From: Pyrinomonadaceae bacterium
GTDB lineage: Bacteria; Acidobacteriota; Blastocatellia; Pyrinomonadales; Pyrinomonadaceae
Assembly (NCBI GenBank): GCA_036567125.1
Contig: DATCVD010000807.1
Location: 1 to 50,461 of the forward strand
Direction of reading: 5' to 3'
DNA length: 50,461 nt
The notes below the pieces were generated by a model that did no database searches, was not told the DNA's origin, and saw nothing but the letters and a program-made list of their open reading frames with translations. Each line of letters begins with the position of its first letter. The stretch's first letter is position 1. Below are positions 3,428 to 37,218 of this stretch, one piece after another. A program made the translations under genes and the position numbers.

Positions 3428-3469
3428 CGCTCGCTAAGCCTCCGGACGAGGGAATTTTTGCCGCGGAAC

Positions 3470-10272: not shown

Positions 10273-10490
10273 GTGCCCCTCCCGTAGGTGTGACGTTAAC
10301 CGACACGGCTTCCCAGCTTCGGTCAGCGTGGAAGTCACGCGAGCGACGGCCTGCACTCCAGAAGTGCCGGCCGCGATGATTCCGCGGGGATTCAACGACT
10401 TTTACGGACTATAATTTCGGCCTCAATCTCGCCCTTTTGACGAAGAGGAGAAATCGGCTAAGGACAGAACACAGGGAGCGTAGAATTAGA

Positions 10491-15763: not shown

Positions 15764-15770
15764 GTGAATT

Positions 15771-15857
15771 GAAGCTGTTAGCTGTTAGCCAGACAGGATC
15801 GGCTTTCAGCTTTCGCGTGAGTTTTGGTTTTTGGTTTTGCTAACAGCTAACAGCTTC
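15771..15857. repeat. Heptamer-hairpin intergenic repeat, copy 1
   Basis: Perfect 19-bp inverted repeat GAAGCTGTTAGCTGTTAGC (15771-15789) / GCTAACAGCTAACAGCTTC (15839-15857). The 49-nt spacer contains TTTTGGTTTTTGGTTTT. It fills the 96-nt kduI-kduD spacer. Confidence 0.9.
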
Positions 15858-15859
15858 CC

Positions 15860-16699
15860 TCAGTCTTTCACCGCTTCGAGGCCGGAGCCGCCCGCGGCGA
15901 AATCGGGCTGCACGTTGACGACGCCGTACTTGCGATCCTCGCCCTCGCGCATGGCCGCCATCATCCACATGAAGTTGATCTGCCCGCCGGGCGCGGAGAC
16001 GTTAGGGTGATAGCCTTTAGGCATCAGCACCACGTCGCCCTCGCGCACGACCTGCACCAGCTCCGGGTCTTCCGGGTTCGTGTAGACGAACTGCACGCCG
16101 AACGACGGCGCGGGCATGTCGATGTAAAGGTAAGCCTCTTCGAGCATCCGCGAGTGCTCGTGCGGCGGCCACGATGTCCAGTTGCCGGGGCGCGAGAAGG
16201 TGACGCCGGTCATGATGCGCCCGGCCTTGACGTTGCTGCCGATGAGCACGTTCATGTCGCGCTCGGCCGGGGGCGCGCCCGCAATGATGTGCAGCTTCGG
16301 GTTCTCTCTCACCTCCGCGAACGAGACGAACTGGATGGGATAGCGCCCCTCGACCGGCGCTGACAGCTCCGCTAGATCGCAACCGTCCTCCGCCGCCGGG
16401 CGGACTTCGATCCGCGAGTCGCGCGGGACGTAGAGCGCGTCGTAGCGGCCGAGTTTGAAGGTCTCCCCGCCGGTCGCGATTTCGGCCGCGCCCTTCAGGC
16501 AGACGAGGCCCGTCTCGTGCGTGCCGTTCTCGAACGCCAACGCGTCGTCGCCCGCTCCGAGCGTGACGCGCCCGTAGTGGAGGTAGCGCGCGGCCGTCCG
16601 GCCCGGCGCGACGGCCGTCCGCCGACCGCGCCCTTTGTGCGTGGCCGGCACGTAACAGGTCTCTTTCGTGATCTCTTGCTGCTTCTGCTCCGCCTGCAT
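15860..16699 (-). CDS. kduI: KduI/IolB-family sugar-acid ketol-isomerase (likely 5-keto-4-deoxyuronate isomerase by context)
   Basis: GNWTSWPPHEHSRMLEEAYLYI ... MPKGYHPNVSAPGGQINFMWMMA resembles the IolB-type branch of the KduI/IolB cupin family. It lies directly upstream of kduD. Confidence 0.75.
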   Translation of the reverse strand: MQAEQKQQEITKETCYVPATHKGRGRRTAVAPGRTAARYLHYGRVTLGAGDDALAFENGTHETGLVCLKGAAEIATGGETFKLGRYDALYVPRDSRIEVRPAAEDGCDLAELSAPVEGRYPIQFVSFAEVRENPKLHIIAGAPPAERDMNVLIGSNVKAGRIMTGVTFSRPGNWTSWPPHEHSRMLEEAYLYIDMPAPSFGVQFVYTNPEDPELVQVVREGDVVLMPKGYHPNVSAPGGQINFMWMMAAMREGEDRKYGVVNVQPDFAAGGSGLEAVKD

Positions 16700-16784
16700 G
16701 ATGCTCCCTCCCCCGTCAGTGTAGAACTCCTGCCAGTGTCCGGCCTCCGCCGCGATCCCTGCCGCGCGTTTCAGGACGCGAATG

Positions 16785-18254
16785 TCACGGCGCGAATGTC
16801 GAGGTCAGGAAGCCATCCACGGCGACCTCCATCGCGCCGCCGAGCCCGGCCCCTTTGGGTTCGCCCGGCTCGACCGACCAGCCTTCGAGCTTGCCGGCCA
16901 TCCCCTGCGACACCGCCTCGTTTAGCGGCCCGCTGATGAACTTCCACCCCTCGACTATGCGCCCGCTCACTATCACGCGCGGGACGCCGAGGCCGACGAT
17001 GACGTTCCCGATGCCGATGCCCAGATACTCTCCGAGGCGCTCCAAAGTCCTGCGCGCCCTGAGATCGCCCGCCTCCGCGCGCCCCACGATTTCGACGTAG
17101 CGTGGGGGCTTCTCGCTTCCCAATCTTACCCGTTCACCCGTGTAGAGCGGGCCTGCGGCCGAGGCCGCGGCGTAACGCTCCCAGCAGCCGCGGTTGCCGC
17201 AGGCGCAGGGTTTGCCGCCCGCCACGATGGTCATGTGGCCGAACTCCCCGGCGATGCCCTGCCCCTTGCCGACGCCCCTGTAAACCTCGCCGCCGAGAAC
17301 CAGCCCGACGCCGATCCCCGTGCCCGACCTGACGAGCACGAAGTTGTTGAGTTGCCGTCGGTCGTCCCCGCGCAGCCGCAGTCGGGCCTCGTAGAGCGCG
17401 GCCGCCGTGGCGTCGTTCTCGACGACGACCCGCACGCCGTCGAACGAGAGCGCGTCGGAGACGGGCACGTCATGCCAGCCCAGGTGCGGCGCGTAGAGCA
17501 GGCGGCCCCGGTCGGCGTCCGTGAACCCAGGCAGGCTCACGCCGATGGCGCGCAGCCTGCGCCCGCCGTGCTCTCCGAGAGAAAGTTTTTCGACTGACGC
17601 CCGCACGAGTCGTAGCGCCTCGGTCGGAGCGGGCGGGGTGTCGAACTCCTCCTCGCCTAAAACCTCGCCGCCTAAGTCGGCAACTCCGATCTGCGTGCGA
17701 CGGACGCCGATGCTCACGCCGACGAAGAGATCGCGGTCGCTGTTGAACCGCAGCCCCGCGGCCGGACGGCCCAGGTTGCGGCCCGCGCCGGGTCCCTGCT
17801 GGATCGAGTCTTCGAGCACGACGCCGGCCGCGACGAGCGGCTTGAAGATGTCGGTGACGGTGCTCCGGTTGAGACCGAGACGGCGCGCCAGATCGGCGCG
17901 CGAGATCGGCTGTGCGGCACGGAGCAACCTCAGAAGCGCGCGTGCCGCCCCGACGGAACTTCCGTGATCGCCCGAACCCTTGAGGGGGTGCGAAGTCGTG
18001 ACCAAGACGCCGTCCACGGCATCGCCCCGCGGGATGCCCGCCGGGGAGCGAGACGCGGCGGCCCCATCTCCGGGGATCAGGTTCTTCCTCGCGCTTACCT
18101 CGACCGTGTGCCCCTTAACGTAACCCAGCTCGGACGCGGCCCGCTCGACGCGCGCGCGCGTGGTGGGCGAAACCGGGCGCGCGTGGTTGATGGCGTTAGA
18201 GGCGGTCGCGACCGATACGCCCGCCAGTTCCGCGACATCTCTCAGCGTGGGCAT
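16785..18254 (-). CDS. ROK-family transcriptional regulator with an additional N-terminal LacI-type HTH
   Basis: aa 2-46 TLRDVAELAGVSVATASNAINHARPVSPTTRARVERAASELGYV looks like a LacI/PurR HTH. aa about 103-145 ARALLRLLRAAQPISRADLARRLGLNRSTVTDIFKPLVAAGVV is a ROK repressor winged helix. The ROK sugar-binding domain follows, with ENDATAAAL and the Zn motif GHM..CACGNRGCWE. Confidence 0.8.
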   Translation of the reverse strand: MPTLRDVAELAGVSVATASNAINHARPVSPTTRARVERAASELGYVKGHTVEVSARKNLIPGDGAAASRSPAGIPRGDAVDGVLVTTSHPLKGSGDHGSSVGAARALLRLLRAAQPISRADLARRLGLNRSTVTDIFKPLVAAGVVLEDSIQQGPGAGRNLGRPAAGLRFNSDRDLFVGVSIGVRRTQIGVADLGGEVLGEEEFDTPPAPTEALRLVRASVEKLSLGEHGGRRLRAIGVSLPGFTDADRGRLLYAPHLGWHDVPVSDALSFDGVRVVVENDATAAALYEARLRLRGDDRRQLNNFVLVRSGTGIGVGLVLGGEVYRGVGKGQGIAGEFGHMTIVAGGKPCACGNRGCWERYAAASAAGPLYTGERVRLGSEKPPRYVEIVGRAEAGDLRARRTLERLGEYLGIGIGNVIVGLGVPRVIVSGRIVEGWKFISGPLNEAVSQGMAGKLEGWSVEPGEPKGAGLGGAMEVAVDGFLTSTFAP

Positions 18255-18266
18255 GTCCGTAAAGAA

Positions 18267-18380
18267 GCGATTAGCTGTTAGCCGTTAGCCGTTAGCAAAA
18301 CCGAAAACCAAAAACGGAGTGGAAGCTAAAGCTGAAGCTGTTCTTCCGGCTAACAGCTAACAGCTAACATCGCTAACAGC
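18267..18380. repeat. Heptamer-hairpin intergenic repeat, copy 2 (inverted relative to copy 1)
   Basis: Arms GCGATTAGCTGTTAGCCGTTAGCCGTTAGC (18267-18296) and GCTAACAGCTAACAGCTAACATCGCTAACAGC (18349-18380), about 27 bp of pairing with 2-3 mismatches. The spacer contains AAAACCGAAAACCAAAAAC. It fills the uxaA-ROK spacer. Confidence 0.9.
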
Positions 18381-18383
18381 TAC

Positions 18384-19970
18384 CTACAGCGAGACCGTCT
18401 GCTCCGCCCAGAACTGAAACTCGCGGTGCTTGTGCTCCTCGGCCTTCGCCTGAACCTCGCCGCTCGCCACGCGGCGGACGTGCTCGAAGACGCGCGCGCC
18501 CACCTCGTCAATCGTCTCCGTCCCGTCGATGACGTTGCCCGCCGAGAGATCGAGGTCGCGCGACATGCGCTCGAAGACGGGGTTGTTCGAGGCCAGCTTG
18601 ATGACGGGTGCGATGGCGTTTCCGATTGTCGTCCCGCGCCCCGTCGTGAAGACGACGACGGTCGCGCCCGCGGCGACGAGGCCCGGCGTCGACTCCTGAT
18701 CGTAGCCCGGCCCCTGCATCAGGTGGAGGCCCCTGCCCCGCGGCACTTCGGCGTACTCGACGACGCCCTCGACGCGCGTCGTCCCGGCCTTCGCCATCGC
18801 GCCTAAAGATTTGATCGTGATGTTGAGCAGCCCGCCCGCGATGTTGCCGGGGCTGGGGTTCTGGTTGAGCACGGCCCCGAACTTCGAGGCGTACTCCTTG
18901 TACCAGTCGATCATGCGGTAGATCGCGCGGCCCGTCTCGGCGTCCTTCGCGCGGCTCGCGATCAGGTGTTCCGCGCCGCAGAACTCCGGCACTTCCGTAA
19001 TCAGCACAGTCCCGCCGTGGCGGATGAGCGTGTCGGCCGCGCGACCCAGAGAGGGGTTCGCCGAGATGCCCGAAAAACCGTCCGAGCCGCCGCACTTGAC
19101 GCCGAGGACGAGTTCGCTCACGGGCAACTCCTCGCGCTCGACGCGGTTCACATCCGGGAGCATCCGCTCGACCTCACGCAGTCCGCGCTCGATGGCGGCC
19201 TGCGTGCCGCCGATCTCCTGAATGCCGATCTTGGCGACCGGCTTGTCGAACTTCTTGTCGTGGCCGAGCAGGTACTTTTCGACCTTCGCGAGGTTCGTCT
19301 TCTCGCAGCCCAAGTCCATCAGAATCACGCCGCCGACGTTCGGGTGGTCGGCGTAGTTCGAGAGCGTGCGGAGCATCACGTCGATGGTCGAGCCGTCCTG
19401 GCAGCCGCAGCCCTTGTTGTGCGGGATGGCGACGACGCCGTCCACGTTCGGGTAACGCTCGCGCTTGTAGTGTAGGAACTCCGACATCATCGAAATCTGC
19501 TGCGCCTCGTGGCTCGCGCACATCGAGGTCGGGACGATGAGGACGTAGTTGCGGGTGCCGACGCGGCCGTCCGGCCGGCGAAAGCCGCGGAAGGTGGCGC
19601 GCTCCTGAGCGGGGACGTAGTCGGGCGGAGGCGTCGAGAGGTCTTCGGGCAGGTCGCGCACGACCGGCACTTCGTCCGTCATGTTCGCGTGCGAGATGTA
19701 CTCGCCCTCGCCGATGCCGAGGCTCGTGCCGATGGGCTGGCCGTACTGGAGGACGAACTCGCCCGCCGGGATGGCGCGCGTGGCGAAGCGGTGGCCGGGC
19801 GGGACTGTGTCCTTGATTTCGACGACGCGCCCCGAAGGGAGCGCGACCGCCAGGCCGGGCGAGGTCTCGCGCTTGACGACCGCCAGGTTGTCTTCCGGGC
19901 TGACGATGATGGCGTAGTCGCTGACCGGCGCGGCCTGCGTGGTGGTGCTCGACATTCTCGTTCTCTTCAC
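18384..19970 (-). CDS. uxaA: Altronate dehydratase (UxaA/GarD family: SAF domain plus dehydratase domain)
   Basis: Colinear with remembered E. coli UxaA: NLAVV..GHRFATRAI, VGTRNYVLIVPTS, HNKGCG, LGCE, KCGGSDGFSGISANP, LITEVPEFCGAEHL, NPSPGNIAGGL, TGRGT. The start may be the GTG at 19970 or the ATG at 19955. Confidence 0.88.
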   Translation of the reverse strand: MKRTRMSSTTTQAAPVSDYAIIVSPEDNLAVVKRETSPGLAVALPSGRVVEIKDTVPPGHRFATRAIPAGEFVLQYGQPIGTSLGIGEGEYISHANMTDEVPVVRDLPEDLSTPPPDYVPAQERATFRGFRRPDGRVGTRNYVLIVPTSMCASHEAQQISMMSEFLHYKRERYPNVDGVVAIPHNKGCGCQDGSTIDVMLRTLSNYADHPNVGGVILMDLGCEKTNLAKVEKYLLGHDKKFDKPVAKIGIQEIGGTQAAIERGLREVERMLPDVNRVEREELPVSELVLGVKCGGSDGFSGISANPSLGRAADTLIRHGGTVLITEVPEFCGAEHLIASRAKDAETGRAIYRMIDWYKEYASKFGAVLNQNPSPGNIAGGLLNITIKSLGAMAKAGTTRVEGVVEYAEVPRGRGLHLMQGPGYDQESTPGLVAAGATVVVFTTGRGTTIGNAIAPVIKLASNNPVFERMSRDLDLSAGNVIDGTETIDEVGARVFEHVRRVASGEVQAKAEEHKHREFQFWAEQTVSL

Positions 19971-20010
19971 CGTCCTTCCGTCTTTACCGTCTCGAACTCG
20001 GCCAACGCCC

Positions 20011-20949
20011 TTAGGCTTCCAGCACGTCCGGCAGGATGAGCGACCTGACGTTCGGGTGGAGCCTCAGCCAGAGGCCGGGGTTTTCGTCCGCCTGCCGCGC
20101 GCGCTCCGCAGGGTCTTCGGAGATTTCGGTTTCGAGCACGCGGCGGTAGCTCGCGCGCTTGGCCGGGGCGGTCGAGGCGTCAACGATGGACTGCACGACG
20201 CGGCCCGCGCCGAGGATCGCCGCGGGCCCCAGCGTCAGGATGTGCGTGGCCGCGCGGCACTCGGCCTCGTCCCGTTCGGTGACTGCGCTCCCGCCGACCT
20301 TAAACTTGTTGATGTGGTGTTCGAGGATGCTCGCGGAGATCGGGATCACGCCCGCGACATCGCTGGCAGTCGCGCCCGACCCCGGCTTGATGTAGGCGAG
20401 GTGCGAGGCCGCGCCCGCTTCGGGGCCGAGGCCGAGGAAGAAGATGTCTATGCCGCCGAGGCGTTCGAGCCGTTCGAGGTAGCCGACGAGTCCCGCTTCC
20501 AGGTCGTCCGTGTCGGTCAGCATCGGCGTAAAGCTCTTCACCTTACGGAAGAAGGCTTCGCCCAGCAGCCGCTCGAAGTCGCGGACGAAGCTCAGGCCGT
20601 TGTCCATGCGCATCGGCGCGAGCGCGTCCTGCGTGAAGACGTGCAGGCGGCCGAGCAGCGCGTCTTCCGTCGTGCCCCCGGCCAACTCGCCAAGGACGCG
20701 GTACATGGCCTGCGCCCCGCGGCCGCCGAGCAGGATGATGACGAGGTCGCCCTCCTTCTCGCGCGCCGCCCGGCGAAGCTCCCCGAGCTGCTCGCGCCCC
20801 ACGGCGTCTTCGCTCCCCAGAACTTCGTAGTCGAGCTCCCGCGGGCGCAGCCGCGCAACTGCCTCCAAATGATCGGCCCTGCCGTGCGAGAGCCAGACGT
20901 TATCGCCCGCGGTGCGCCGCACGATGGACTGCGTGTTAGGAGCTGACAC
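20011..20949 (-). CDS. NagB/6-phosphogluconolactonase-superfamily sugar isomerase-like protein, function unknown
   Basis: VIILLGGRGAQAMY and FFLGLGPEAGAASHLAYIKPGS resemble the (GG..) and (G.G.DGH.A) motifs of the glucosamine-6-P isomerase / lactonase fold. Start moved to the GTG at 20949 (AGGGGA upstream). The track start TTG at 21027 sits inside a regulatory palindrome. Confidence 0.6.
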   Translation of the reverse strand: MSAPNTQSIVRRTAGDNVWLSHGRADHLEAVARLRPRELDYEVLGSEDAVGREQLGELRRAAREKEGDLVIILLGGRGAQAMYRVLGELAGGTTEDALLGRLHVFTQDALAPMRMDNGLSFVRDFERLLGEAFFRKVKSFTPMLTDTDDLEAGLVGYLERLERLGGIDIFFLGLGPEAGAASHLAYIKPGSGATASDVAGVIPISASILEHHINKFKVGGSAVTERDEAECRAATHILTLGPAAILGAGRVVQSIVDASTAPAKRASYRRVLETEISEDPAERARQADENPGLWLRLHPNVRSLILPDVLEA

Positions 20950-21025
20950 TCTTATTCCCCTGACAAATTCATAACGGCCCGGATGCCCGATTGCAATAAA
21001 GACCAGATGGCACTTTCGGATTGTC

Positions 21026-21046
21026 AAGAATGGTTAGACCATTCTT
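21026..21046. promoter_or_regulatory. Candidate GntR-type operator in the divergent NagB-like/uxaA and SDR/TRAP promoter region
   Basis: Perfect 9+3+9 palindrome AAGAATGGT-TAG-ACCATTCTT. Confidence 0.5.
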
Positions 21047-21190
21047 AAATTGAAGAGTGAATTTTTACCATGAGTTGACTAATAATGCAAGGCGTATTGT
21101 GGACATATTATGGATATATTAAGATATTAAGGCTATTTGAGGCTTGACAAGATAATCGTCTTGGTGTTACATACCAACCGCCCGATCTTT

Positions 21191-21203
21191 AATTGGTTTA
21201 ACC
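21191..21203. promoter_or_regulatory. Candidate GntR-type operator upstream of the SDR gene, next to a sigma70-like promoter
   Basis: AATTGGTTTAACC. Just upstream are TTGGT-GTTACAT-ACCAA (21161-21177) and a possible promoter TTGACA (21144-21149) - 17 nt - TTACAT (21167-21172). Confidence 0.4.
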
Positions 21204-21351
21204 TTCTAAGGCGCAGCCCGCTCGGATTCCCATCTGGTCGGGCGAAGGTTTAAGCCTAGTCGTATTCGGCCCGACCGACATTTGGAAGACCACGTCCTGC
21301 CGCGGTTGGCCGGCGGCCAGCCCAGAGCCATCTTAAATAAGGAACCGCGCA

Positions 21352-22128
21352 ATGACTTATAAGCCTTTGGAGTTAGACGGCAAAGTGGCTGTCGTCGTTG
21401 GCGGCACTTCAGGGATCGGAAGGGCGATAGCGCACGGCTTGGCCGCCGCCGGCGCGGACGTCGTCCCCACCTCACGGCGCGAGGAGCAGGTCGATGCGGC
21501 GGCGCGGGAGATCGAGGCCATCGGCCGCAGTTCGTTGCGCGTCGCCTCGGACGTTTCCGACCGCGCCTCCCTCCAGCGCGTCCTCGACGAGACCGTCCGC
21601 GCCTTGGGCAAGGTAGATATCTTGGTCAATTCCGCGGGCAAGACGAAGCGCGCGCCCACGCTCGACTTCGCCGAAGAGGACTGGGCCGACATCATCGAGA
21701 CGAACCTGACGGGTACGCTGCGCGCCTGCCAGGTCTTCGGCCGCCACATGCTGGAGCGCGAATACGGCCGCATCATCAACATCGCGTCGCTCTCCACCTT
21801 CGTCGCGCTCTACGAGGTGGCGGCCTACTCGGCGAGCAAGGCGGCCGTCGCCTCGCTCACCAAGTCGCTCGCGGTCGAGTGGTCGCCGCGCGGAGTCAAC
21901 GTCAACGCCATCGCGCCCGGCGTCTTCCGCACCGCGCTCAACCAGAAGCTGCTGGACGAGACCGAGCGCGGCCGCGAGTTCCTGACGCGCACGCCGATGA
22001 AACGCTTCGGCCGGGTCGAGGAGTTGGCGGGCGCGGCCGTCTTCCTCGCCTCCGACGCGGCCAGCTTCGTCACCGGCGAGATTCTGGCCGTGGACGGCGG
22101 CTTCCTCGCGAGCGGGGTGAATCAGTGA
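21352..22128 (+). CDS. Short-chain dehydrogenase/reductase (gluconate 5-dehydrogenase-like); candidate uronate-pathway reductase
   Basis: GKVAVVVGGTSGIGRAIA (Rossmann), NSAG, YSASKAAV (YxxxK), NAIAPGVFRT, PMKRFGRVEELAGAAVFLASDAASFVTGEILAVDGG. Confidence 0.85.
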   Translation: MTYKPLELDGKVAVVVGGTSGIGRAIAHGLAAAGADVVPTSRREEQVDAAAREIEAIGRSSLRVASDVSDRASLQRVLDETVRALGKVDILVNSAGKTKRAPTLDFAEEDWADIIETNLTGTLRACQVFGRHMLEREYGRIINIASLSTFVALYEVAAYSASKAAVASLTKSLAVEWSPRGVNVNAIAPGVFRTALNQKLLDETERGREFLTRTPMKRFGRVEELAGAAVFLASDAASFVTGEILAVDGGFLASGVNQ

Positions 22129-22131
22129 GAG

Positions 22132-22304
22132 GAAGCTGTTAGCTATTAGCTATTAGCTGCTGGGGCACGGCAGGCGCCGAGCCGCGAGTTGAGCGGTGAG
22201 TAGCAACATTGAGAAGCTGTAACCCGCATGGTTGCAGGCAAGGCGCAGGGTTGAAAACAGGTATTCACCTTACTTCCTTCTGAAAGCTAACCGCTAACAG
22301 CTTC
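22132..22304. repeat. Heptamer-hairpin intergenic repeat, copy 3 (long spacer)
   Basis: Left arm GAAGCTGTTAGCTATTAGCTATTAGCTGC (22132-22160); right arm GAAAGCTAACCGCTAACAGCTTC (22282-22304). The outer 12 bp pair perfectly. The spacer is about 120 nt. It fills the SDR-M24 spacer and ends 4 nt before the ATG at 22309. Confidence 0.85.
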
Positions 22305-22308
22305 TGCC

Positions 22309-23430
22309 ATGCCCAACGCCGAGATCGCGGAGAAGATTGAGAGGCTCATGCGGGCAATGCGCGCGGAGGCTCTGGGCGGCGTGCTCGTGGGCGCGCAGCA
22401 CAACTTCTCCTGGCTGACGGCGGGCGCGTCGAACGGCATCGATCAGAGCCGGGACGCCGGCGCGGGCGCGCTGCTCGTGCGCGCCGACGGCCGCCGCTTC
22501 GCCCTCGCCAGCCGCATCGAGATGCCGCGCCTGCTCGCCGAGGAGGTTTCGACAGAGGAGTTCGAGCCGGTCGAGTTCGCGTGGGAGGAGGAGAAGGCGT
22601 CGCCGACGTTTCTCGCCGACCGCGCACGACGGCTTATCGCCGGTAACACCGTGCTGGGTTCCGATCTTCCGGCCGGCCCTGACGCGCGGGTAGTCGAAGG
22701 GCTGATCTCGCGGTGCAGGTATCAACTCACCAGCCCGGAGCTTGAAAGATACGGGCAACTCGGCCGCGACGCGGGTGAGTCAGTGGGCCAACTGGTCAGG
22801 AGCCTTTCGCCCGGCCTGACCGAGTCGGAGGTGGCCCGGCGGGTTTCGGACGCGCTGGCCGCGCGCGGCATCCGCGCCGTGGTGAACCTCATAGCGGCCG
22901 ACGAGCGGATTGAAAAGTTTCGCCATCCTGTGCCGACTGACAGACGCTGGGAGCGCGTCCTGATGGTGGTCGTCTGCGCGCGGCGCGCGGGGCTTGTCGC
23001 CTCATTGACGCGGATCGTCTGCGCCGGCCCCGTGCCGGGGGAACTGAGGCGGCGGGCTGAGTCTTGCGCGCGCGTCAACGCGCGGCTGTTGGCCGCGACA
23101 CGGCCGGGCGCGACCGGCGCGGAGATCTACGAGACGGCGGCGCGCGCTTACACGGACGAAGGTTTCGCGGGCGAGGAGCGTTTGCACCACCAGGGCGGCG
23201 CGGCCGGATACCGCACGCGCGACTGGGTGGCGCACCCTGCCTCGACGGAAGCGGTTCACGCCGGGCAGGCGTTCGCGTGGAACCCATCGATCACGGGCGC
23301 GAAGGTCGAAGAGACGTGTCTCGCCTTTGAAGACGGCGTGGAAGTCATCTCCGCCTCCCCCGGCTGGCCTCAGATCATAAGCGTGCTCGACGGCCGCGAG
23401 TACCGATCCCCCGACGTGCTGAAACTGTAA
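22309..23430 (+). CDS. M24 (creatinase/prolidase-fold) family protein, possibly catalytically divergent
   Basis: Creatinase_N-like N-terminus, then a pita-bread-fold C-terminus (..LHHQGGAAGYRTRDW.., NPSITGAKVEETCLAFEDGVEVIS). Confidence 0.65.
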   Translation: MPNAEIAEKIERLMRAMRAEALGGVLVGAQHNFSWLTAGASNGIDQSRDAGAGALLVRADGRRFALASRIEMPRLLAEEVSTEEFEPVEFAWEEEKASPTFLADRARRLIAGNTVLGSDLPAGPDARVVEGLISRCRYQLTSPELERYGQLGRDAGESVGQLVRSLSPGLTESEVARRVSDALAARGIRAVVNLIAADERIEKFRHPVPTDRRWERVLMVVVCARRAGLVASLTRIVCAGPVPGELRRRAESCARVNARLLAATRPGATGAEIYETAARAYTDEGFAGEERLHHQGGAAGYRTRDWVAHPASTEAVHAGQAFAWNPSITGAKVEETCLAFEDGVEVISASPGWPQIISVLDGREYRSPDVLKL

Positions 23431-23498
23431 GCCCTTTTCCCGTCCACAAAGGTTGTAGGTCTCTTGACCTCGTAAGTCTTTTTTTGAGGTAGCGTCTC

Positions 23499-24506: not shown

Positions 24507-24517
24507 AGGGGAACCTA

Positions 24518-25066
24518 ATGGAAGTCATCAGAGTCGTTAACCGCCAACTCGAATACGCGCTGCGCGTCGTCCTCGTCCTCCTGCTGACGGTGATGACGCT
24601 GACGGTCGTCTGGCAGGTGCTCTCGCGCCTGCTCGCGAAGGCGACGGTCGCCTACGGCCTGCCGCTCCTCATCGAGCCGAGCCGCTGGACGGAGGAGATG
24701 GCGAGCTTCCAGCTCGGCTGGCTCGCGCTGCTCGGCGCGGCCTACGCCCTGCGCAAGCACGAGCACCTCGGCTTCGACTTCATCTACCTGAAGATGACGC
24801 CCGCCGGGCAGCGCCGGACGGAGCTGTTCGTGCGCGCGCTCGTCATCATCTTCTCGCTCACGGTGCTAGTCTACGGCGGGTCACGCCTCGTGCTGATGAC
24901 CTTTCAGCTAAAGCAGACCACGGCCGGGCTACAGTGGCCGATGGCGGTCATCTACGCCGTCATCCCTGTGAGCGGCCTGCTGATGGCGATCTTCGCCGTC
25001 GAGGGCGTCTTCGCCCCCGGCGAGTCGCAACTCGAAGAGGGGCAGGTCGAGGAGGCGGCGCTATGA
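24518..25066 (+). CDS. dctQ: TRAP transporter small permease (DctQ family)
   Basis: 182 aa with four predicted hydrophobic helices; position between DctP and DctM; ATGA overlap with the next gene. Confidence 0.8.
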   Translation: MEVIRVVNRQLEYALRVVLVLLLTVMTLTVVWQVLSRLLAKATVAYGLPLLIEPSRWTEEMASFQLGWLALLGAAYALRKHEHLGFDFIYLKMTPAGQRRTELFVRALVIIFSLTVLVYGGSRLVLMTFQLKQTTAGLQWPMAVIYAVIPVSGLLMAIFAVEGVFAPGESQLEEGQVEEAAL

Positions 25067-26388: not shown

Positions 26389-26424
26389 GGCGCGCGAGTC
26401 AAGACCGTTTTAAGGACAAGAGAG

Positions 26425-27525
26425 ATGGCCGACTTCAAGATCAAAGACAAGAGCGACTGCCGCTGGGATTGCGTCTCGCTGGGCGAGGTGATGCTCAGGC
26501 TCGATCCCGGCGACGCGCGCGTCCACACGGCGCGGGAGTTCCGCGCCTGGGAGGGCGGCGGCGAGTACAACGTCGCGCGGGGCCTGAAGCGCTGCTTCGG
26601 CTTGGAGACCGCGGTCGTCACCGCGCTCGCCGACAACCCCGTCGGCCGGCTTGTGCAGGACTTGATCTATCAGGGCGGCGTCGATCAGTCGCACGTCCTC
26701 TGGCGTAAGTACGACGGCGTCGGGCGCGAGGTCAGAAACGGCCTCAACTTCACCGAGCGGGGTTTCGGCGTGCGCGCGGCTCTTGGGTGCTCCGACCGCG
26801 GCCATACGGCCGTCTCGCAGCTCCGGCCCGGCGACATCGACTGGGAGAAAATCTTCGGCCGCGAGGGCGCGCGCTGGTTCCATACCGGCGGCATCTTCGC
26901 CGCGCTCTCGGAGACGACGCCCGCCGTCGCCCGCGAGGCGATGCAGGCGGCCGAGCGACACGGCACGGTCATCTCCTACGACCTGAACTACCGCGAGAGC
27001 CTGTGGAAGGGCGTCGGCGGCAAGGCCCGCGCGCAGGAGGTCAACCGGGAGCTCGCGCGCTACGTGGACGTGATGATCGGCAACGAGGAGGACTTCACGG
27101 CCTGCCTCGGCCTCGAAGTCGAAGGGCTGGACGAGCACCACTCTAAGTTGGACGTCGCCAACTTCCGCAAGATGATCGAGCGCGCTGTTTCAGAGTTCCC
27201 GAACTTCAAGGTAGTCGCCACCACGCTGCGCAACGCGAAGACGGCCACGGTCAACGACTGGGGCGCAGTCTGCTACGCCGGCGGCGAACTCTACCAGGCG
27301 CAGACGCGCGCTGAATTAGAGATCTTCGACCGCGTCGGCGGCGGCGACTCGTTCGCCTCTGGGCTTATCTACGGCTTCCTGGCGAATAAAGGCCCGCAGT
27401 GGGCGGTCGAGTGCGGCGCGGCCCACGGAGCGCTGGCGATGACCACGCCGGGCGACACGACGATGGCGACGCTCCCCGAGGTCGAGCGCGTGATGAAGGG
27501 CGGCGGCGCGCGCGTCGCGCGGTGA
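26425..27525 (+). CDS. kdgK: 2-dehydro-3-deoxygluconokinase (PfkB family)
   Basis: PfkB signatures: GEVMLRLDP, GGEYNVARGL, DRVGGGDSFASGLIYGFL. Lies between the TRAP genes and eda. Confidence 0.85.
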   Translation: MADFKIKDKSDCRWDCVSLGEVMLRLDPGDARVHTAREFRAWEGGGEYNVARGLKRCFGLETAVVTALADNPVGRLVQDLIYQGGVDQSHVLWRKYDGVGREVRNGLNFTERGFGVRAALGCSDRGHTAVSQLRPGDIDWEKIFGREGARWFHTGGIFAALSETTPAVAREAMQAAERHGTVISYDLNYRESLWKGVGGKARAQEVNRELARYVDVMIGNEEDFTACLGLEVEGLDEHHSKLDVANFRKMIERAVSEFPNFKVVATTLRNAKTATVNDWGAVCYAGGELYQAQTRAELEIFDRVGGGDSFASGLIYGFLANKGPQWAVECGAAHGALAMTTPGDTTMATLPEVERVMKGGGARVAR

Positions 27526-27552
27526 GTGCACAAAAGTTGTCGGGAGTGCTTG

Positions 27553-28218
27553 ATGAATAAGCAGGAAGTCTTAAAGCGCATCAGTGAGGTCGGCGTGGTG
27601 CCAGTCGTGCGCGCGTCCTCGCCGGAAGAGGCGATGCAGGTCGTCGACGCGATCAAGGAGGGCGGTGTGCCCGTCCTCGAAATCACGATGACGGTGCCAC
27701 GAGCCGTGAGGGTGATCGAGCAGTTGGCGCACCGTTACGGCTCCGAGGTCATCATCGGCGCGGGGACGGTGCTCGACCCCGAGACTGCGCGCGCGTGCAT
27801 CCTCGCCGGGGCCGCCTTCGTCGTCAGCCCCGCGCTCAACACGGCGACGATCGAGTTGTGCCGGCGCTACTCGGTCGCTTGTATGCCCGGCGCGCTCACC
27901 CCGACCGAGGTGGTGACGGCGTGGCAGGCCGGCGCGGACGTGGTCAAGGTCTTCCCCTGCGGGGCGCTCGGCGGCGCGAAGTACCTGAAGTCCTTGAAGG
28001 CCCCGCTGCCGCAGATCGAGATGATCCCGACCGGCGGCGTCTCGCTCCAGACCGCGGCCGAGTTCATCGAGGCCGGGGCACTCGCGCTCGGCGTCGGGGC
28101 AGACCTCGTGGACACGAAGGCCATCCGCGCGGGCAAAGCGCGGAAGGTGACGGAGGCTGCACGGGCCTACGTCGCCGCCGTGAGAGCCGCCCGTGGCGGC
28201 GGCCCGCAGCAGATGTGA
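27553..28218 (+). CDS. eda: KDPG / KHG aldolase
   Basis: VVPVVRASSPEEAMQVVDAIKEGGVPVLEITMT, GAGTVL, FVVSP, PGALTPTE, VKVFP and IPTGGV match Eda. Start at the ATG at 27553 with GGGAG 6 nt upstream. Confidence 0.9.
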   Translation: MNKQEVLKRISEVGVVPVVRASSPEEAMQVVDAIKEGGVPVLEITMTVPRAVRVIEQLAHRYGSEVIIGAGTVLDPETARACILAGAAFVVSPALNTATIELCRRYSVACMPGALTPTEVVTAWQAGADVVKVFPCGALGGAKYLKSLKAPLPQIEMIPTGGVSLQTAAEFIEAGALALGVGADLVDTKAIRAGKARKVTEAARAYVAAVRAARGGGPQQM

Positions 28219-28315
28219 TCGGGTTTCAGACTGGGGAAGGTCTTTGACAACTCCGCGGCCGTGGTTCCGGTTTAGAACAAGGACTGTCTGTGACCCGGAA
28301 ACCGGCGGCTGGAAC

Positions 28316-29083
28316 TTACCGCCCGTTGCCGTTCGCGCCGTCGCGCGCGGCGTCTTCGGCCGCCTCCTGCTCCTGCGCCCTCTGCGCGCGCACGAGGTGT
28401 TCGCGCATGGCGGCGCGCGCCGCCTCAGGGTCGTGCTCGCGGATGGCGCGGTAGATGTGGCGGTGCATCTCGGCCGACTCCTTCAGGTCGCGTGCGCGCT
28501 TGACGGTCTTGCTCCGCACGTCGAAGAGGATGGTCGCCACCATGTTCATCAGGGAAGTCAGGATGCGGTTGCCGGAGGCCGCGGCCACCGTCTGGTGGAA
28601 GCGCATGTCGTGGACGAGGAACTGTTCGGGGTCGTCGAGTGAGGTGAACATGCCCGTGATCTCCTCGGACATCGTCGCCATCTGGTCGCCGGTGGCCCGC
28701 TCGGCTGCGAGCCCCGCGACGGCCATCTCAAGCGACTGCCGTGCCTCGAACATCTCGGCCGACGTGAAGCCGTGCAGCGAGGCCATCAGGCGCAGCGGGC
28801 TGCTGTCGAGCGCCGGCGGCCCGTCCGACTTGACGACAAACGTGCCCGCGCCCTGACGCGATTGCAACACGCCGACGGCCGCCAGCGAGCGGATGCCGGC
28901 ACGCAGCGTCGGTCGGCTGACGCCGAGCATCTTGGCGAGGTCGCGCTCCGGAGGCAGCCGGTCGCCGGGGCGCAGTTCGCCGCGGTGAATCATTTCCCGG
29001 AGTTGCGAGACCACTTCCTCCGAAGTTGTCCCGCGCCGCTCCGCGTCGATGGTTTTGAAGATGTCGGTATTAAGGGCGGTCAT
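28316..29083 (-). CDS. GntR-family (FadR subfamily, FCD domain) transcriptional regulator; likely hexuronate/pectin repressor
   Basis: VVSQLREMIHRGELRPGDRLPPERDLAKMLGVSRPTLRAGIRSLAAVGVLQSRQGAGTFV is the GntR winged HTH. An all-helical FCD-like C-terminus follows. Confidence 0.88.
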   Translation of the reverse strand: MTALNTDIFKTIDAERRGTTSEEVVSQLREMIHRGELRPGDRLPPERDLAKMLGVSRPTLRAGIRSLAAVGVLQSRQGAGTFVVKSDGPPALDSSPLRLMASLHGFTSAEMFEARQSLEMAVAGLAAERATGDQMATMSEEITGMFTSLDDPEQFLVHDMRFHQTVAAASGNRILTSLMNMVATILFDVRSKTVKRARDLKESAEMHRHIYRAIREHDPEAARAAMREHLVRAQRAQEQEAAEDAARDGANGNGR

Positions 29084-29235
29084 ACCATTGAGTGCGCCAG
29101 AATATCTTTTTGACCAGATGCCGAGGGGCAGATGACATCGGCCTTCTTGGTGATCGCAATCTGCCCCGTTGAAGTCGCAGTTTAACCGTTTCGTTGTACG
29201 ATGTCGAACATTTTATTCAAAGCCTTTGACCCTAG

Positions 29236-29310
29236 AGGTCAGACCAATTGTAAGAGTGCAGAAACCGGGCCGGAAATTGTTCACAATCCGGCTTCGTAAA
29301 TTGGTTAGCC
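29236..29310. promoter_or_regulatory. Candidate GntR-type operator sites in the divergent gntR / GH105 promoter region
   Basis: AGGTCAGACCAATT (29236-29249), preceded by TGACC-CTAGA-GGTCA, and AAATTGGTTAGCC (29298-29310). Confidence 0.4.
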
Positions 29311-29413
29311 GGGCTGACTTCCGCAGCTTGGGGAACGCCGCTTCAAGAGTCGGCCCGGCACGGCGGACATCGCGGGTAATTTCAGGTATCAGCGTATTGA
29401 GGGAGGGAGCCTC

Positions 29414-31327
29414 GTGAAGACCCTATTTTGCTTAATCCTTTTTGCCATTCTGTCGTCGGCCGCGCCGGCCACGGGGCAGACCCGGCCGCTCTCCGAGCGC
29501 GCGGCCGCCACGGCCATGAACAGCCTCTGGCGCGACCCGGCGAAGAAGGAGGCGGGACTGCCCGCGAAGTGGACTTACGAACTCGGCGTCGTGCTCAAGG
29601 GCGCCGAGGGCGTCTGGTACTCGACGGGCGACGGCCGTTACTTCAAGTACGTCCGCGACAGCATCGATCACTTCGTGGACAAGGACGGCTCGATCCGCAC
29701 CTACAAGCTCGAAGACTACAACATCGACAACATCCTACTGGGGCGCAACCTGCTGACGCTCTACAAGGTGACGGGTCAGGAGAAGTACCGCAAGGCCGCC
29801 GCGCAGTTGCGCGAGCAGCTCAAAGCGCACCCGCGCACGCGGGAGGGCGGCTTCTGGCACAAGAAGATCTACCCGCACCAGATGTGGCTCGACGGCCTCT
29901 ACATGGGCGAGCCGTTTTACGCCGAGTACGCCGTGACCTTCGGCGAGCCCGAAGCCTTCGACGACATCGCCCGCCAGTTCGTCCTCATGGAGAAGCATTC
30001 GCGCGACGCGAAAACCGGCCTGCTATACCACGGCTGGGATGAGTCGCGCGAACAGCGCTGGGCGGACAAACAGACGGGCCGCTCGCCGCACGTCTGGGGG
30101 CGCGCGATGGGCTGGTACGCGATGGCGCTCGTGGACACGCTCGAACACTTCCCCGCCGAGCACCCGCGGCGCGGTGAACTTGTAGCGATCCTGAACCGGC
30201 TGGCGGCGGCGGTTGCGAAGTACCAGGAGCCGAAGTCCGGTCTGTGGTATCAGGTCGTTGACCGCGGCGGCCACAAGGGCAACTACCTCGAAGCGTCGGC
30301 CTCGGCCATGTTCGTCTACGCGCTGTCGAAGGGCGTCCGCCAAAATTACCTGCCGGCCTCTTACACGAAGGTCGCGGAGAAGGCTTACGCCGGCATCGTC
30401 AAAGAATTCGTCAAGCCGGTCTCGGACGCGCAGGTCAACTTCGAAGGGACGGTGAGCGTGGCGGGCCTCGGCGGCAACCCTTACCGCGACGGCAGCTACG
30501 AGTACTACCTGAGCGAGCGCGTCGTCACCAACGATCCGAAAGGCACGGGGGCCTTCATCAAGGCGAGCGTCGAGATGGAACGGGCCGCGCGGCCCAAGCC
30601 CGGACGCGGCAAACGGGTCGCCCTCGACTACTACTTCAACAGCGAGATGAGGAAGGACGCCGCCGGGCGTCTCGCCCACTGGCACTACACCTGGGACGAA
30701 CTCTCGAACCCCGGCTTCTCGCTCTGGGGCCACCTCTTCCGCAACTACGGCGCGCGCACCGTCGCCCTGAAGGACGCGCCCACGGCGGCGAACCTCAAGA
30801 GCGCGGACGTTTACATCATCGTCGATCCCGACACCGAGAAAGAGACGGAGCGGCCGAACTTCATCGGCCCCGCCCACGTCGCCGCGATCAACGACTGGGT
30901 GCGCGCGGGCGGCGTCCTCGTCCTGATGGGCAACGACGCGGGCAACGCCGAGTTCGAGCACTTCAACCGCTTGGCCGGGCAGTTCGGCATCCGCTTCAAC
31001 GAAGACAGGCGGAACCTCGTGCCGAACGACGACTTCGCCATGGGGCGCATCGTCGCGCCCGAAGGCCACCCGATCTTCAAGACGGCGCGCAACCTCTACC
31101 TCAAAGAGATCTCCACGCTGGGCGTGAGCGCGCCCGCGCGGGCCGCGGTCACGGACAAAGGCGACACGGTGATGGCCGTAGCCCGTGTCGGCCGCGGCAC
31201 GGTTTTCGCCGTCGGCGACCCGTGGCTCTACAACGAGTACGTTGACGGCCGGAAACTGCCCGCCGAGTTCGACAATTACGAGGCCGCCAGCGATCTCGCG
31301 CTGTGGCTGCTGCAGCAGGCGAAGTGA
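29414..31327 (+). CDS. Unsaturated rhamnogalacturonyl hydrolase (GH105) fused to a C-terminal DUF4350-like domain
   Basis: GTG start after GAGGGAGGGAG; signal peptide. The GH105/YteR-like part includes HKKIYPHQMWLDGLYMGEPFYAEYA and WGRAMGWYAMALVD. The C-terminal ~250 aa (from about 30590) has ..ADVYIIVDPD.., GGVLVLMGND, GTVFAVGDPW, resembling DUF4350 / class-I amidotransferase-like folds. Confidence 0.8.
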   Translation: MKTLFCLILFAILSSAAPATGQTRPLSERAAATAMNSLWRDPAKKEAGLPAKWTYELGVVLKGAEGVWYSTGDGRYFKYVRDSIDHFVDKDGSIRTYKLEDYNIDNILLGRNLLTLYKVTGQEKYRKAAAQLREQLKAHPRTREGGFWHKKIYPHQMWLDGLYMGEPFYAEYAVTFGEPEAFDDIARQFVLMEKHSRDAKTGLLYHGWDESREQRWADKQTGRSPHVWGRAMGWYAMALVDTLEHFPAEHPRRGELVAILNRLAAAVAKYQEPKSGLWYQVVDRGGHKGNYLEASASAMFVYALSKGVRQNYLPASYTKVAEKAYAGIVKEFVKPVSDAQVNFEGTVSVAGLGGNPYRDGSYEYYLSERVVTNDPKGTGAFIKASVEMERAARPKPGRGKRVALDYYFNSEMRKDAAGRLAHWHYTWDELSNPGFSLWGHLFRNYGARTVALKDAPTAANLKSADVYIIVDPDTEKETERPNFIGPAHVAAINDWVRAGGVLVLMGNDAGNAEFEHFNRLAGQFGIRFNEDRRNLVPNDDFAMGRIVAPEGHPIFKTARNLYLKEISTLGVSAPARAAVTDKGDTVMAVARVGRGTVFAVGDPWLYNEYVDGRKLPAEFDNYEAASDLALWLLQQAK

Positions 31328-31329
31328 AT

Positions 31330-31447
31330 GAAGCCGTTAGCTGTTAGCTGAAAAAAAGCGATCAAAGACGTTCGCCTTATGAAGGCGACGCCGATCACGG
31401 GGGATGCCGTGAGCTAACAGCTAATAGTTAACGCCAACAGCTAACGG
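31330..31447. repeat. Heptamer-hairpin intergenic repeat, copy 4
   Basis: Left arm GAAGCCGTTAGCTGTTAGCTG (31330-31350); right arm GAGCTAACAGCTAATAGTTAACGCCAACAGCTAACGG (31411-31447). There are 12-13 bp perfect pairings in two alternative registers. An inner hairpin lies around 31368-31391. Confidence 0.85.
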
Positions 31448-32046: not shown

Positions 32047-32082
32047 AAGGGCGCGGCCATTTCAAACGGCCGCGCCCTTTTT
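32047..32082 (+). terminator. Rho-independent terminator after the cupin gene (between convergent genes)
   Basis: 12-bp stem AAGGGCGCGGCC (32047-32058) / GGCCGCGCCCTT (32068-32079), followed by TTT. Confidence 0.7.
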
Positions 32083-37110: not shown

Positions 37111-37134
37111 TTCCGAAAGAATCGAAGATGCGGC

Positions 37135-37169
37135 GTGAGCCGCCCCGGCTGCTCGCGGGGGCGGCTCAC
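37135..37169 (-). terminator. Hairpin downstream of the TonB-dependent receptor gene (second of two tandem hairpins)
   Basis: 12-bp perfect stem GTGAGCCGCCCC (37135-37146) / GGGGCGGCTCAC (37158-37169). A second 8-bp hairpin CCGGCCGA/TCGGCCGG lies at 37180-37200. On the minus strand it is followed by a moderately T-rich stretch. Confidence 0.45.
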
Positions 37170-37218
37170 GTCACATTCACCGGCCGAAGTCGTCGGCCGG
37201 AAAGCTGTCGTCCGGTCT

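Follow-up and report, generated by a model that had tools for sequence, protein, structure and literature searches.

The question raised by this locus is what kind of element fills several of its spacers with long hairpins, and whether these hairpins do anything there. The locus is a 50-kb stretch of DNA from a Pyrinomonadaceae bacterium (50,461 nt; hereafter the window, i.e., the whole stretch that was analysed), which is in its entirety a locus for pectin and hexuronate utilisation. An earlier note on this DNA had described four hairpins with arms of tandem 7-nt units, (AGCTGTT)n paired with (AACAGCT)n, and had considered them a structural or mobile family. Our answer is that they belong to a real, non-random and widely distributed family, which is best filed among the interspersed palindromes related to repetitive extragenic palindromic (REP) sequences and miniature inverted-repeat transposable elements (MITEs), here made of heptanucleotide simple sequence repeats (SSRs). 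As to its nature, the reading we favour, with about even confidence, is that of a dispersed foldback repeat, similar to MITEs or to the REP doublets called REPINs, that derives from heptanucleotide SSRs, is copied between loci, is remodelled by slippage, is tolerated where it does no harm, and would form a REP-like stem-loop between cistrons on the mRNA.

Tandem arrays in the window were located with Tandem Repeats Finder (TRF), and flanking genes were identified with Pfam. The four copies are the following.

15771-15857, minus strand: copy 1, hairpin repeat between kduI (upstream) and a kduD-like gene of the short-chain dehydrogenase/reductase (SDR) family (downstream); arms at 15771-15789 and 15839-15857, a stem of 19 bp made of two full units plus the GAAGC end; loop of 49 nt with a (TTTTGGT)2.4 array; 2 nt from the TGA stop codon (15860-15862) and 7 nt to the ATG (15763).
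18263-18384, minus strand: copy 2, hairpin repeat between a uxaA-like altronate dehydratase gene and a LacI-ROK regulator gene; arms at approximately 18263-18296 and 18347-18384, with four to five units each; the stem abuts the uxaA stop codon TAG (18384-18386), and there are 12 nt to the ATG (18254).
22132-22304, plus strand: copy 3, hairpin repeat separating an SDR gene from an M24-family gene; arms at 22132-22158 (GCTGTTA and twice GCTATTA) and 22280-22304; loop of ~120 nt, structured and G+C-rich, without kinship to the loops of copies 1 and 2; 3 nt from the TGA stop codon (22126-22128) and 4 nt to the ATG (22309).
31330-31447, plus strand: copy 4, hairpin repeat between a GH88/GH105-type glycoside hydrolase gene and a cupin lipoprotein-like gene; 5' arm at 31330-31350, 3' arm at 31411-31447 with extra degenerate units (TTAAC, CCAAC); 2 nt from the TGA stop codon (31325-31327) and 14 nt to the ATG (31462).

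Reading of all four sites revealed runs of GCTGTTA-type units in the 5' arms and of TAACAGC-type units in the 3' arms, and TRF called arrays of period 7 on all eight arms as well as in the loops of copies 1 and 2 (TTTTGGT). The hairpins and their tandem units are thus present as had been described. The arm motif GTTAGCTGTTAGC, with up to two mismatches, gave 17 matches, every one of them within the four elements, where shuffled sequences lead one to expect 0.30, and a looser pattern, TTAGCNNTTAGC, revealed no additional copy over the 50-kb window. The three longest inverted repeats of the window are three of the four elements. Folded as sense-strand RNA, copies 1-4 reach -38, -54.5, -75.5 and -48.1 kcal/mol, with z-scores relative to shuffles of -6.9, -5.1, -3.3 and -4.1, respectively, and the stem of copy 1 proved to be perfect over its 19 bp, as had been claimed. 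Pfam analysis of the flanking genes also confirmed that each copy lies between two co-directional genes of the hexuronate/pectin operons.

Several details required adjustment. The ends GAAGC..GCTTC, said to be common to all copies, are exact in copies 1 and 3 (GAAGCT...AGCTTC) and degenerate in copies 2 and 4. The elements had been described to start 3-6 nt after the upstream stop codon; the measured distances are 0-3 nt, all four copies lying within 3 nt of a stop codon. Copy 2, the end of which had been placed at 18380, with the uxaA stop codon TAG just 3 nt away, extends over 18263-18384. Finally, every whole element has all three frames on both strands closed by stop codons, but the claim that each single arm presents stops in three frames holds for arms of at least three units, the number needed for this, whilst each arm of copy 1 closes two frames.

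How such elements came to their positions can be approached through their loops. The loops of copies 1 and 2 are homologous, and the plus strand of copy 1 aligns with the minus strand of copy 2; as they align on opposite strands, the two copies are inverted relative to transcription, in agreement with what the earlier note had proposed. A pattern taken from the loop/arm junction of these copies, GGTTTTGCTAACRGCTA, was scanned against metagenomes. It was too short, most of its 120 matches being coding sequence, and among these matches were 16 elements, located in G+C-rich contigs. Nine of the 16, from soil metagenomes, carry the loop module TTAGCC-RGAAGA-CAGCTTTCAGCTTTCG-...-TTTTGGTTTTGCTAAC between unrelated flanks. 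The non-repetitive loop of copies 1 and 2 is thereby known in at least 13 copies at different loci (at least 11 loci). Since a common loop module occurs at loci with unrelated flanks, whole elements have been copied between loci. Moreover, a short-read (Logan) contig of the same strain, which is identical to the window over 3294 nt, starts at window position 18295 inside an arm of copy 2, and such an assembly break is the signature of a multi-copy repeat. Together, the copies found elsewhere, the nine further loci with the loop subfamily, and the assembly break bear out the idea of a structural or mobile (MITE/REP-like) family.

Arrays of 7-nt units are also found inside the loops, i.e., TTTTGGT or AAAACCA at window positions 15822-15838 and 18297-18315, and in the relative designated L123 the corresponding spacer contains (TTTTTGA)n (10846-10880). 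In copies 1 and 2, the loops may represent heptamer arrays that are decayed or of secondary origin.

Presence and absence of the elements were followed by reading the spacers in orthologous operons of seven relatives with 86-93% KduI identity, which were found with KduI as the query; its closest homologues are from Pyrinomonadaceae (Acidobacteriota). In L125 (93% KduI identity), both the uxaA|ROK and the kduI|kduD spacers contain elements that are loop-homologous to the window copies. The kduI|kduD element of L125 has four units per arm vs. two in the window, and a variant unit of L125, GATTAGC, is mirrored as GCTAATC in the opposite arm. Empty or short orthologous spacers, for which the earlier note had suggested to look, exist in three relatives: the kduI|kduD spacer is just 18 nt long in L124 (TGA ACGCGGAAAGCTTATAAA ATG) and 34 nt in L126, where it contains apparently decayed TAG-bearing 7-mers, and the SDR|M24 spacer of L123 is 20 nt long. 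Corresponding spacers of other relatives contain hairpins of other units, i.e., TCAGTTG and GTCAGCC (one substitution from TTAGCCG) in L122, ATGATGA and ATGCGGA in L126 and L127, and also GTGACGA in L127. In L129 (86% KduI identity), a different hairpin family occupies three spacers (4079-4264, 8070-8285, and 9817-10010), with arms of 9-nt units (ACGGATGAN) and the common ends ATAGAACACGGAT...ATCCGTGTTCTAT. No hairpin was found in the spacers iso|uxaA, M24|MFS, and kduD|GH43 in any relative examined. The empty spacer of L124 (10838-10855) was compared with window positions 15764-15859: a fusion of the element ends GAAGCT and AGCTTC at their common AGCT would yield GAAGCTTC. The empty spacer could reflect an excision that left its footprint, a seed site, or mere coincidence.

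These observations bear on the possibility that slippage and template switching made each hairpin grow purely locally, out of a small palindromic seed such as GAAGCTTC and without any copying between loci. Local growth would be in line with heptanucleotide repeats being the commonest long SSRs in many bacteria and slippage being the accepted mechanism behind them (Mrazek et al., 2007, as summarised in PMC4679880; PMC4692102). The difference in unit number between relatives, the resemblance of loop segments to decayed heptamers (GCTTTCA GCTTTCG; TTTTGGT TTTTGGT), the resemblance of the empty L124 spacer (GGAAAGCTT) to fused element ends, and the ~69 partnerless solo arrays discussed below would also fit. 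However, at least 13 copies at different loci with a common non-repetitive loop could not have arisen independently, and symmetric local processes do not predict the biased arm order described below. As the sole explanation, local growth is largely refuted, and we consider it improbable.

Beyond the close relatives, a collection with one genome per species was scanned with GCTGTTAGCTGTTAGC, which yielded at least 119 loci; the groups are given here as named in the records. Arrays of heptamers with a TTAGC core were found in at least ten phyla, in phage contigs, and on a cyanobacterial plasmid, so that copies beyond the locus, the search for which had been proposed earlier, do exist. The carriers among the matches listed are Acidobacteriota, Gemmatimonadota, Bacteroidota, Desulfobacterota, Firmicutes, Actinobacteriota, Chloroflexota, Planctomycetota, Myxococcota, Cyanobacteria, Proteobacteria, Verrucomicrobiota, and Patescibacteria, and the matches listed include cultured isolates of Maribacter, Chitinophaga, Hymenobacter, Dyadobacter, and Lysobacter. 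The core TTAGC of the unit is constant, and the other two positions vary (GCTGTTA, GCTATTA, GCTCTTA, GCCGTTA, GCGATTA, etc.). This core is common from Acidobacteriota to phages of gut Firmicutes.

Among plasmids, a search of PLSDB produced a single match, in the ~48.6-kb plasmid NZ_CP112875.1 of Pseudanabaena galeata (L314, 1440-1690). This copy consists of ~19 units, in blocks of TTTTAGC and TGTTAGC, a loop of ~70 nt, and four complementary units. It lies in the spacer that separates a TAG stop codon from the start of cas2, and no annotated feature lies beneath the match. In three loci of Desulfobacteraceae or Thermodesulfobacteriota (L004, L025, and L034), the arrays are bounded by ATGAAAGC...GCTTTCAT and are abutted by a start codon. 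Read from this start codon, they form mini-open reading frames (e.g., ATG AAA GCT AAC AGC TAA), which may be a mere by-product.

Viral contigs of IMG/VR contributed 64 further loci, whilst neither a match to a phage contig nor one to the element was found among the INPHARED phages. In two phage contigs, an element is present at nearly every gene junction.

L183 (1-10370), L137, and L157: phage contigs, IMG/VR 3300021255_003533 and 3300028833_000521, with genes for large terminase, portal, head protease, major head protein, and integrase.

In L183, nine of the ten junctions of the module encoding terminase, portal, protease, and major head protein are occupied. The phage elements take up precisely the space between the stop codon and the AGGAGG of the following gene and enclose a G+C-rich mini-hairpin. 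The sequence enclosed by the phage TTAGC hairpins comprises this mini-hairpin, GCGCGC-N4-GCGCGC, and AAGTAACTT. Its orientation is skewed within each phage (11:3 and ~8:0), and the favoured orientation relative to transcription differs between the two phages.

The exact fit between stop codon and AGGAGG at nine of ten junctions in the phage head module speaks for another explanation, namely that the hairpins are dedicated intercistronic RNA elements, which punctuate operons and are selected for their effect on polycistronic mRNA. Ribosomes of any frame would be stopped at the foot of the hairpin, and the upstream stop and the downstream start would be joined across the base of the stem. The stem would be a processing site for RNase III or a barrier to exonucleases, in the style of the early region of phage T7, and would give the cistrons different stabilities or outputs. 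RNase III requires roughly 20 bp or more of double-stranded RNA, and stems of 19-30 bp suffice in length, cleavage itself being predicted. Placement in bacterial genomes is also compatible with such a role. In 20 of 33 co-directional spacers from many phyla, the hairpin begins at the stop codon or no more than ~10 nt away from it; in such spacers, it starts at a median of ~9 nt past the stop, which often is the first TAG of the array, and ends at a median of 21 nt before the start codon. Three Pyrinomonadaceae spacers are occupied in most relatives despite the differing units. Furthermore, the window genes that follow the elements have no Shine-Dalgarno sequence, whereas other genes of these operons have GGAGG; for instance, none was found between copy 1 and the ATG of the kduD-like gene. 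Finally, owing to the fixed, strand-symmetric arm order, the RNA would be identical whichever way the spacer is transcribed.

Other properties of the family are difficult to reconcile with this explanation. With genes called by a crude caller of open reading frames (ORFs), 74% of the elements are in co-directional, 15% in convergent, and 11% in divergent spacers, as compared with 72, 14, and 14%, respectively, of all spacers at the same loci, and the residual spacer has a median length of 50 nt vs. 57 nt for ordinary spacers. A preference for operon spacers or tight junctions is therefore rejected: placement within operons, as reported in the earlier note, applies to the four window copies, but the family as a whole equals the baseline, with divergent spacers included. 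Selection at the RNA level on the transcribed strand had been suggested by G-U wobbles seen by eye in four of four copies. However, a count in 39 oriented elements gave 131 G-U pairs in the sense and 156 in the antisense strand, and the sense fold was the more stable one in 17 elements and the antisense fold in 22, so that there is no bias for the transcribed strand. Loops are freely flipped and are not skewed in GC or TA with respect to the sense strand, and orthologous spacers are sometimes empty without an obvious replacement. The stop codons give no clear support either: neither arm contains a stop codon in 20 of 47 other families of heptamer hairpins, which weakens the case for three-frame stops as a selected feature, and the other heptamer families show no asymmetry of stop codons between the 5' and 3' arms (13 vs. 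8). Thus, the three-frame stop property is real, but it probably is not the selected feature. On balance, an element dedicated to operon punctuation is possible, though on the unlikely side.

The family as a whole obeys a rule of arm order. In all sequence fetched, a TTAGC array is followed by a GCTAA array within 250 nt in 111 cases and the reverse order is found in six, which results in the polarity 5'-(NNTTAGC)n-loop-(GCTAANN)n-3'. Because this arrangement is strand-symmetric, both strands read from the TTAGC arm at the 5' side to the GCTAA arm at the 3' side. The arms are conserved across phyla, whilst each lineage has loops of its own, which can be found either way round in a single genome or phage. 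The earlier note did not contain this directional rule, by which the TTAGC arm is nearly always the 5' one.

Solo arrays without an inverted partner (~69) follow an orientation rule of their own. At genome loci, solo arrays within 40 nt of gene ends are found in the TTAGC sense after stop codons in a ratio of 31:14 and in the GCTAA sense before start codons in a ratio of 20:9 (p = 0.002). The rule, for which gene ends were again taken from the crude ORF caller, was not reproduced in viral loci and is suggestive only.

Two further regularities extend to hairpins of other units. The period was 7 in 139 of 150 adjacent inverted pairs of tandem arrays; the loci had been chosen for a 7-mer, but about half of the pairs use other units. 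In 45 families of non-TAGC units, G exceeds C in the 5' arm in 30 families and is exceeded by it in nine; the p value of 0.001 is optimistic, since many units are interrelated. We keep as an idea that avoidance of Rho may set the arm order, in that the C-rich arm would be paired once it is made. The excess of G over C in the 5' arm fits this idea; the absence of loop skew does not, nor does the prevalence of the C-richer GCTAACA sense (34 vs. 18) among the solo arrays of co-directional spacers.

A constant core of 5 nt with two free positions is typical of a motif contacted by a protein, and the arms may be viewed as binding arrays for an oligomeric protein that reads heptads, either on RNA, like HutP or TRAP, or on DNA, like the omega repressor. 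On RNA, binding to the 5' arm would control formation of the hairpin. HutP sites consist of UAG-N4 repeats, with at least three UAG triplets, and precede or form part of a terminator. The occurrence of UAG every 7 nt in the 5' arm has the same geometry, though no terminator is present here; the omega repressor is a ribbon-helix-helix protein that binds 7-bp heptads. The fixed arm order and the orientation of solo arrays at gene ends would also be consistent with such a reader. To our knowledge, however, HutP is restricted to relatives of Bacillus. Moreover, the flanking genes are unrelated in ten phyla and in phage structural modules, which excludes a pathway regulator and leaves a near-universal factor as the only fit, and heptamer families whose cores differ from TTAGC likewise form such hairpins. 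We therefore deem a heptad-reading protein quite improbable.

The arm order is also relevant to the question whether a known signal has been misread, such as an intrinsic terminator or attenuator, an integron attC site, or an operator of the LacI-ROK or GntR regulators. A hairpin directly after a gene, the resemblance of GTTAGCT to the attC core GTTRRRY, and regulator genes within the locus could all lead one to think so. The individual candidates fail, though. A terminator scan called none of the copies, and no T-tract follows any of the stems, the sequences after which are CAATTCAC, TTTACGGAC, TGCC, and GGGGACGA. Similarly, a scan for promoter consensus sequences found none of the four copies to be promoter-like. 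Along the cassette strand, attC sites have the order R''(RYYYAAC) ... R'(GTTRRRY) and lie beside mobile cassettes and the integrase IntI. The arm order here is the opposite, with GTTAGC first and GCTAAC last (111:6), the flanks are conserved syntenic operon genes rather than cassettes, and no integrase was found among the Pfam-scanned ORFs of the window locus. An operator of the pectin regulon is rejected on account of the unrelated genes that adjoin the element in many phyla. A misread signal is, altogether, highly improbable.

A broader possibility is that the hairpins constitute a gene-boundary class, common to bacteria and phages, the universal rules of which (period 7, G-rich arm first, TTAGC favoured) result from contact with conserved machinery. 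They would then be a general insulator or processing signal, partly spread by phages, rather than junk. Such machinery could be that of transcription (Rho or RNA polymerase, as the RNA folds co-transcriptionally), the terminating ribosome, RNase III, or the replisome. We consider this broader possibility unlikely.

The reading we favour is that of a dispersed foldback repeat. At the level of sequence, whole elements with unique loops have been copied to different loci and in either orientation, unit number shifts between close relatives, unit variants are mirrored in both arms, and elements are present or absent at orthologous spacers. Loops that occur both ways round are expected of an element with inverted ends that inserts in either orientation. 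The arms would lengthen and shorten through replication slippage, and their complementarity would be kept by template switching from arm to arm (quasipalindrome correction), by selection for pairing, or by both. Selection may act as a filter, the survivors being those that sit just past the stop codon and leave the start region free. Such survivors would have stops in every frame, lack a start codon, a Shine-Dalgarno sequence, a promoter, and a T-tract, and fold at once. As they have no T-tract, the elements would not terminate transcription, and a transcribed element would form a stem-loop of 19-30 bp between two cistrons of a polycistronic mRNA. Most likely, this stem-loop would function like a REP sequence or a bacterial interspersed mosaic element (BIME), i.e., as a barrier to 3' exonucleases or as a substrate of RNase III. 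It might also be a brake on the upstream cistron, because less than 15 nt separate the stem from the stop codon.

Several observations weigh against this favoured reading. In phage contigs, nearly every junction of the head module has an element fitted precisely into the interval from stop codon to Shine-Dalgarno sequence, which looks designed, and the suggestive orientation rule of the solo arrays concerns gene ends and not DNA alone. In most relatives, the same three spacers are filled by hairpins of other units and their neighbours never are, which hints at a site-specific benefit or a hot spot. An autonomous partner was sought as an F...gene...R arrangement with 0.5-3.5 kb between the arrays, which gave just four cases and no convincing transposase candidate, and the IS66 copy in the window has ends that are unrelated to the elements. 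No target-site duplication is present at the four window copies, and none beyond chance was found at the stem feet of 25 measurable elements, a small sample, many of the folds having reached the edge of the excised segment. A single arm core in ten phyla would be unexpected of a small non-autonomous element unless a recognising protein is widespread or selection convergent. The mRNA-level effect is wholly inferred. Lastly, a passive passenger would not readily explain the recurrent period of 7 and the G-rich 5' arm across unit families.

Comparison with known systems supports the classification. The conserved outward-facing arms, variable interiors, copies of the interior, presence/absence pattern, and placement that follows the available spacers resemble those of REPINs or MITEs. 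What is distinctive is that the ends themselves are heptanucleotide SSRs, as a result of which arm length would drift by slippage, and that unit variants are mirrored between the arms. REPINs are REP doublets that form hairpins and are mobilised by RAYT (Y1) transposases, whose genes are flanked by the repeats; no Y1 transposase domain was found in the 20 window ORFs scanned against Pfam, the remaining ORFs being unscanned. Like REPs and REPINs, the heptamer hairpins are high-copy intergenic palindromes that often follow a coding region closely, in spacers of co-directional or convergent genes. Their two inverted halves form a long hairpin, each lineage has its own version, and they plausibly exist as RNA hairpins. 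Dispersed inverted doublets are found here as well, with four copies in 50 kb, nine more loci with the loop subfamily, and 111 hairpins of inverted arrays. The heptamer arms differ in being tandem 7-nt units with a TTAGC core that is common across phyla. REPs are single imperfect palindromes of 20-40 bp with an unpaired GTAG or CGTC tag (PMC3733652); no such tag is conserved among the four copies, and their ends GAAGC..GCTTC are paired. REPs stabilise the upstream mRNA, and those close to a stop codon can cause ribosomes to stall and the mRNA to be cleaved (PMC12306157; PMC3733652).

With MITEs, the heptamer elements share that they are short, non-coding, and dispersed, that terminal inverted repeats are kept around a variable interior, that they occur in either orientation, and that they are present or absent at given sites; terminal inverted repeats indeed bound a short non-coding interior in the present elements. 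They differ by the absence of a target-site duplication and by inverted ends that are internally repetitive and variable in length. The closest architectural analogue is the eukaryotic foldback (FB-type) transposon, which has long inverted arms of tandem short subrepeats, a variable middle, and unstable arm length. However, FB elements are much larger, eukaryotic, and in some cases endowed with a transposase, and the resemblance is architectural only, with no evolutionary link implied. The intercistronic RNase III sites of phage T7 are related hairpins between the cistrons of a polycistronic transcript, comparable to the elements at almost every junction of the phage contigs. In contrast to the heptamer hairpins, which are known from sequence, the T7 sites are not made of tandem units, have internal loops that direct single cleavages, and are experimentally proven.

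Heptanucleotide SSRs as a general class are already known (PMC4679880; PMC4692102; see also PMC2700814). Direct repeats of TAACTGA are found beside start codons in Beggiatoaceae, Cyanobacteria, and Bacteroidetes, and their spread across phyla is unexplained (PMC4679880). The elements described here resemble such repeats, variously called long SSRs (LSSRs), short tandemly repeated repetitive sequences (STRRs), or TAACTGA repeats, in consisting of tandem 7-nt intergenic units, often next to start codons, with a sporadic distribution across phyla, no known vehicle, and stops in all frames in the forward orientation. The traits of the class are evident, with at least two to three head-to-tail units in non-coding DNA (up to ~19) and with variation in unit number (two in the window, four in L125). 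The 3'-arm unit TAACAGC differs from TAACTGA at two of seven positions, and the relative L122 has CAACTGA. In contrast, TAACTGA repeats have no predicted secondary structure, with one inverted set among 170 (PMC4679880), whereas the heptamer hairpins are defined by two inverted arrays around a loop and a fixed arm order.

No family that had been described before was recognised in the earlier note, and this still holds. At the gathering score, neither the window nor any of ten related loci matched Rfam, and nothing relevant was found there at E ≤ 1 over positions 15600-22500. In the searchable literature, most subscription journals being outside it, no inverted heptamer-array hairpins, TTAGC unit, or arm-order rule are described.

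If the elements are passive, they represent a very widespread and easily recognised class of foldback repeats, which is unannotated in the one annotated plasmid record examined, breaks short-read assemblies, and inflates the apparent intergenic length inside operons. If they are active on RNA, they would offer a general, portable way of tuning cistron ratios within operons, and a ready part for the design of synthetic operons, with stops in six frames, no promoter, and no terminator. The interest of the family rests on its breadth and on its unexplained rules. The period of 7, the arm order of 111:6, the excess of G over C in the 5' arm, and the common TTAGC core call for a mechanism, and they touch on a question raised in 2007 and 2015, i.e., why heptanucleotide repeats are favoured and how identical units reach unrelated phyla (PMC4679880).

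The genes flanking the four copies, as identified with Pfam, and the insertion sequence at the end of the window are listed here.

15002-15763, minus strand: SDR (KduD-like) gene, downstream of copy 1 (adh_short_C2, 1.4e-61).
15860-16699, minus strand: KduI/IolB-family isomerase gene, upstream of copy 1.
16785-18254, minus strand: regulator fusion gene with a LacI-type helix-turn-helix (HTH), a winged HTH, and a ROK domain, downstream of copy 2.
18384-19970, minus strand: altronate/galactarate dehydratase (UxaA-like) gene, upstream of copy 2.
21352-22128, plus strand: SDR gene, upstream of copy 3.
22309-23430, plus strand: M24-family (creatinase/prolidase-like) gene, downstream of copy 3.
29414-31327, plus strand: GH88 gene (unsaturated glucuronyl/rhamnogalacturonyl hydrolase type), upstream of copy 4.
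31462-32025, plus strand: cupin-domain gene, downstream of copy 4.
48711-50291, minus strand: IS66-family DDE transposase gene, interrupted by the window end.
Near 48701-48712 and 50405-50416: inverted ends of the IS66 copy, CTATTCAGCTAT and ATAGCTGAATAG, unrelated to the heptamer arms.

The combination of a LacI-type HTH, a winged HTH, and a ROK domain in the regulator is an unusual fusion. In the relative L127, the gene for this ROK regulator is deleted, and its first codons (ATGCCCACGCTGAGA) remain after the hairpin (~9880-9900). Another repeat in the window, at 9521-9636, is a GGCGTC-based tandem repeat of 6/12/18/24 nt within a pectate-lyase ORF (8635-10395, minus strand), where it probably is a repetitive linker. 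At the ends of operons (3469-3520, 8589-8629, 32047-32079, and 37128-37176), near-perfect G+C-rich hairpins with loops of 1-5 nt are found; these resemble ordinary terminators and contrast with the A+T-richer heptamer hairpins within the operons.

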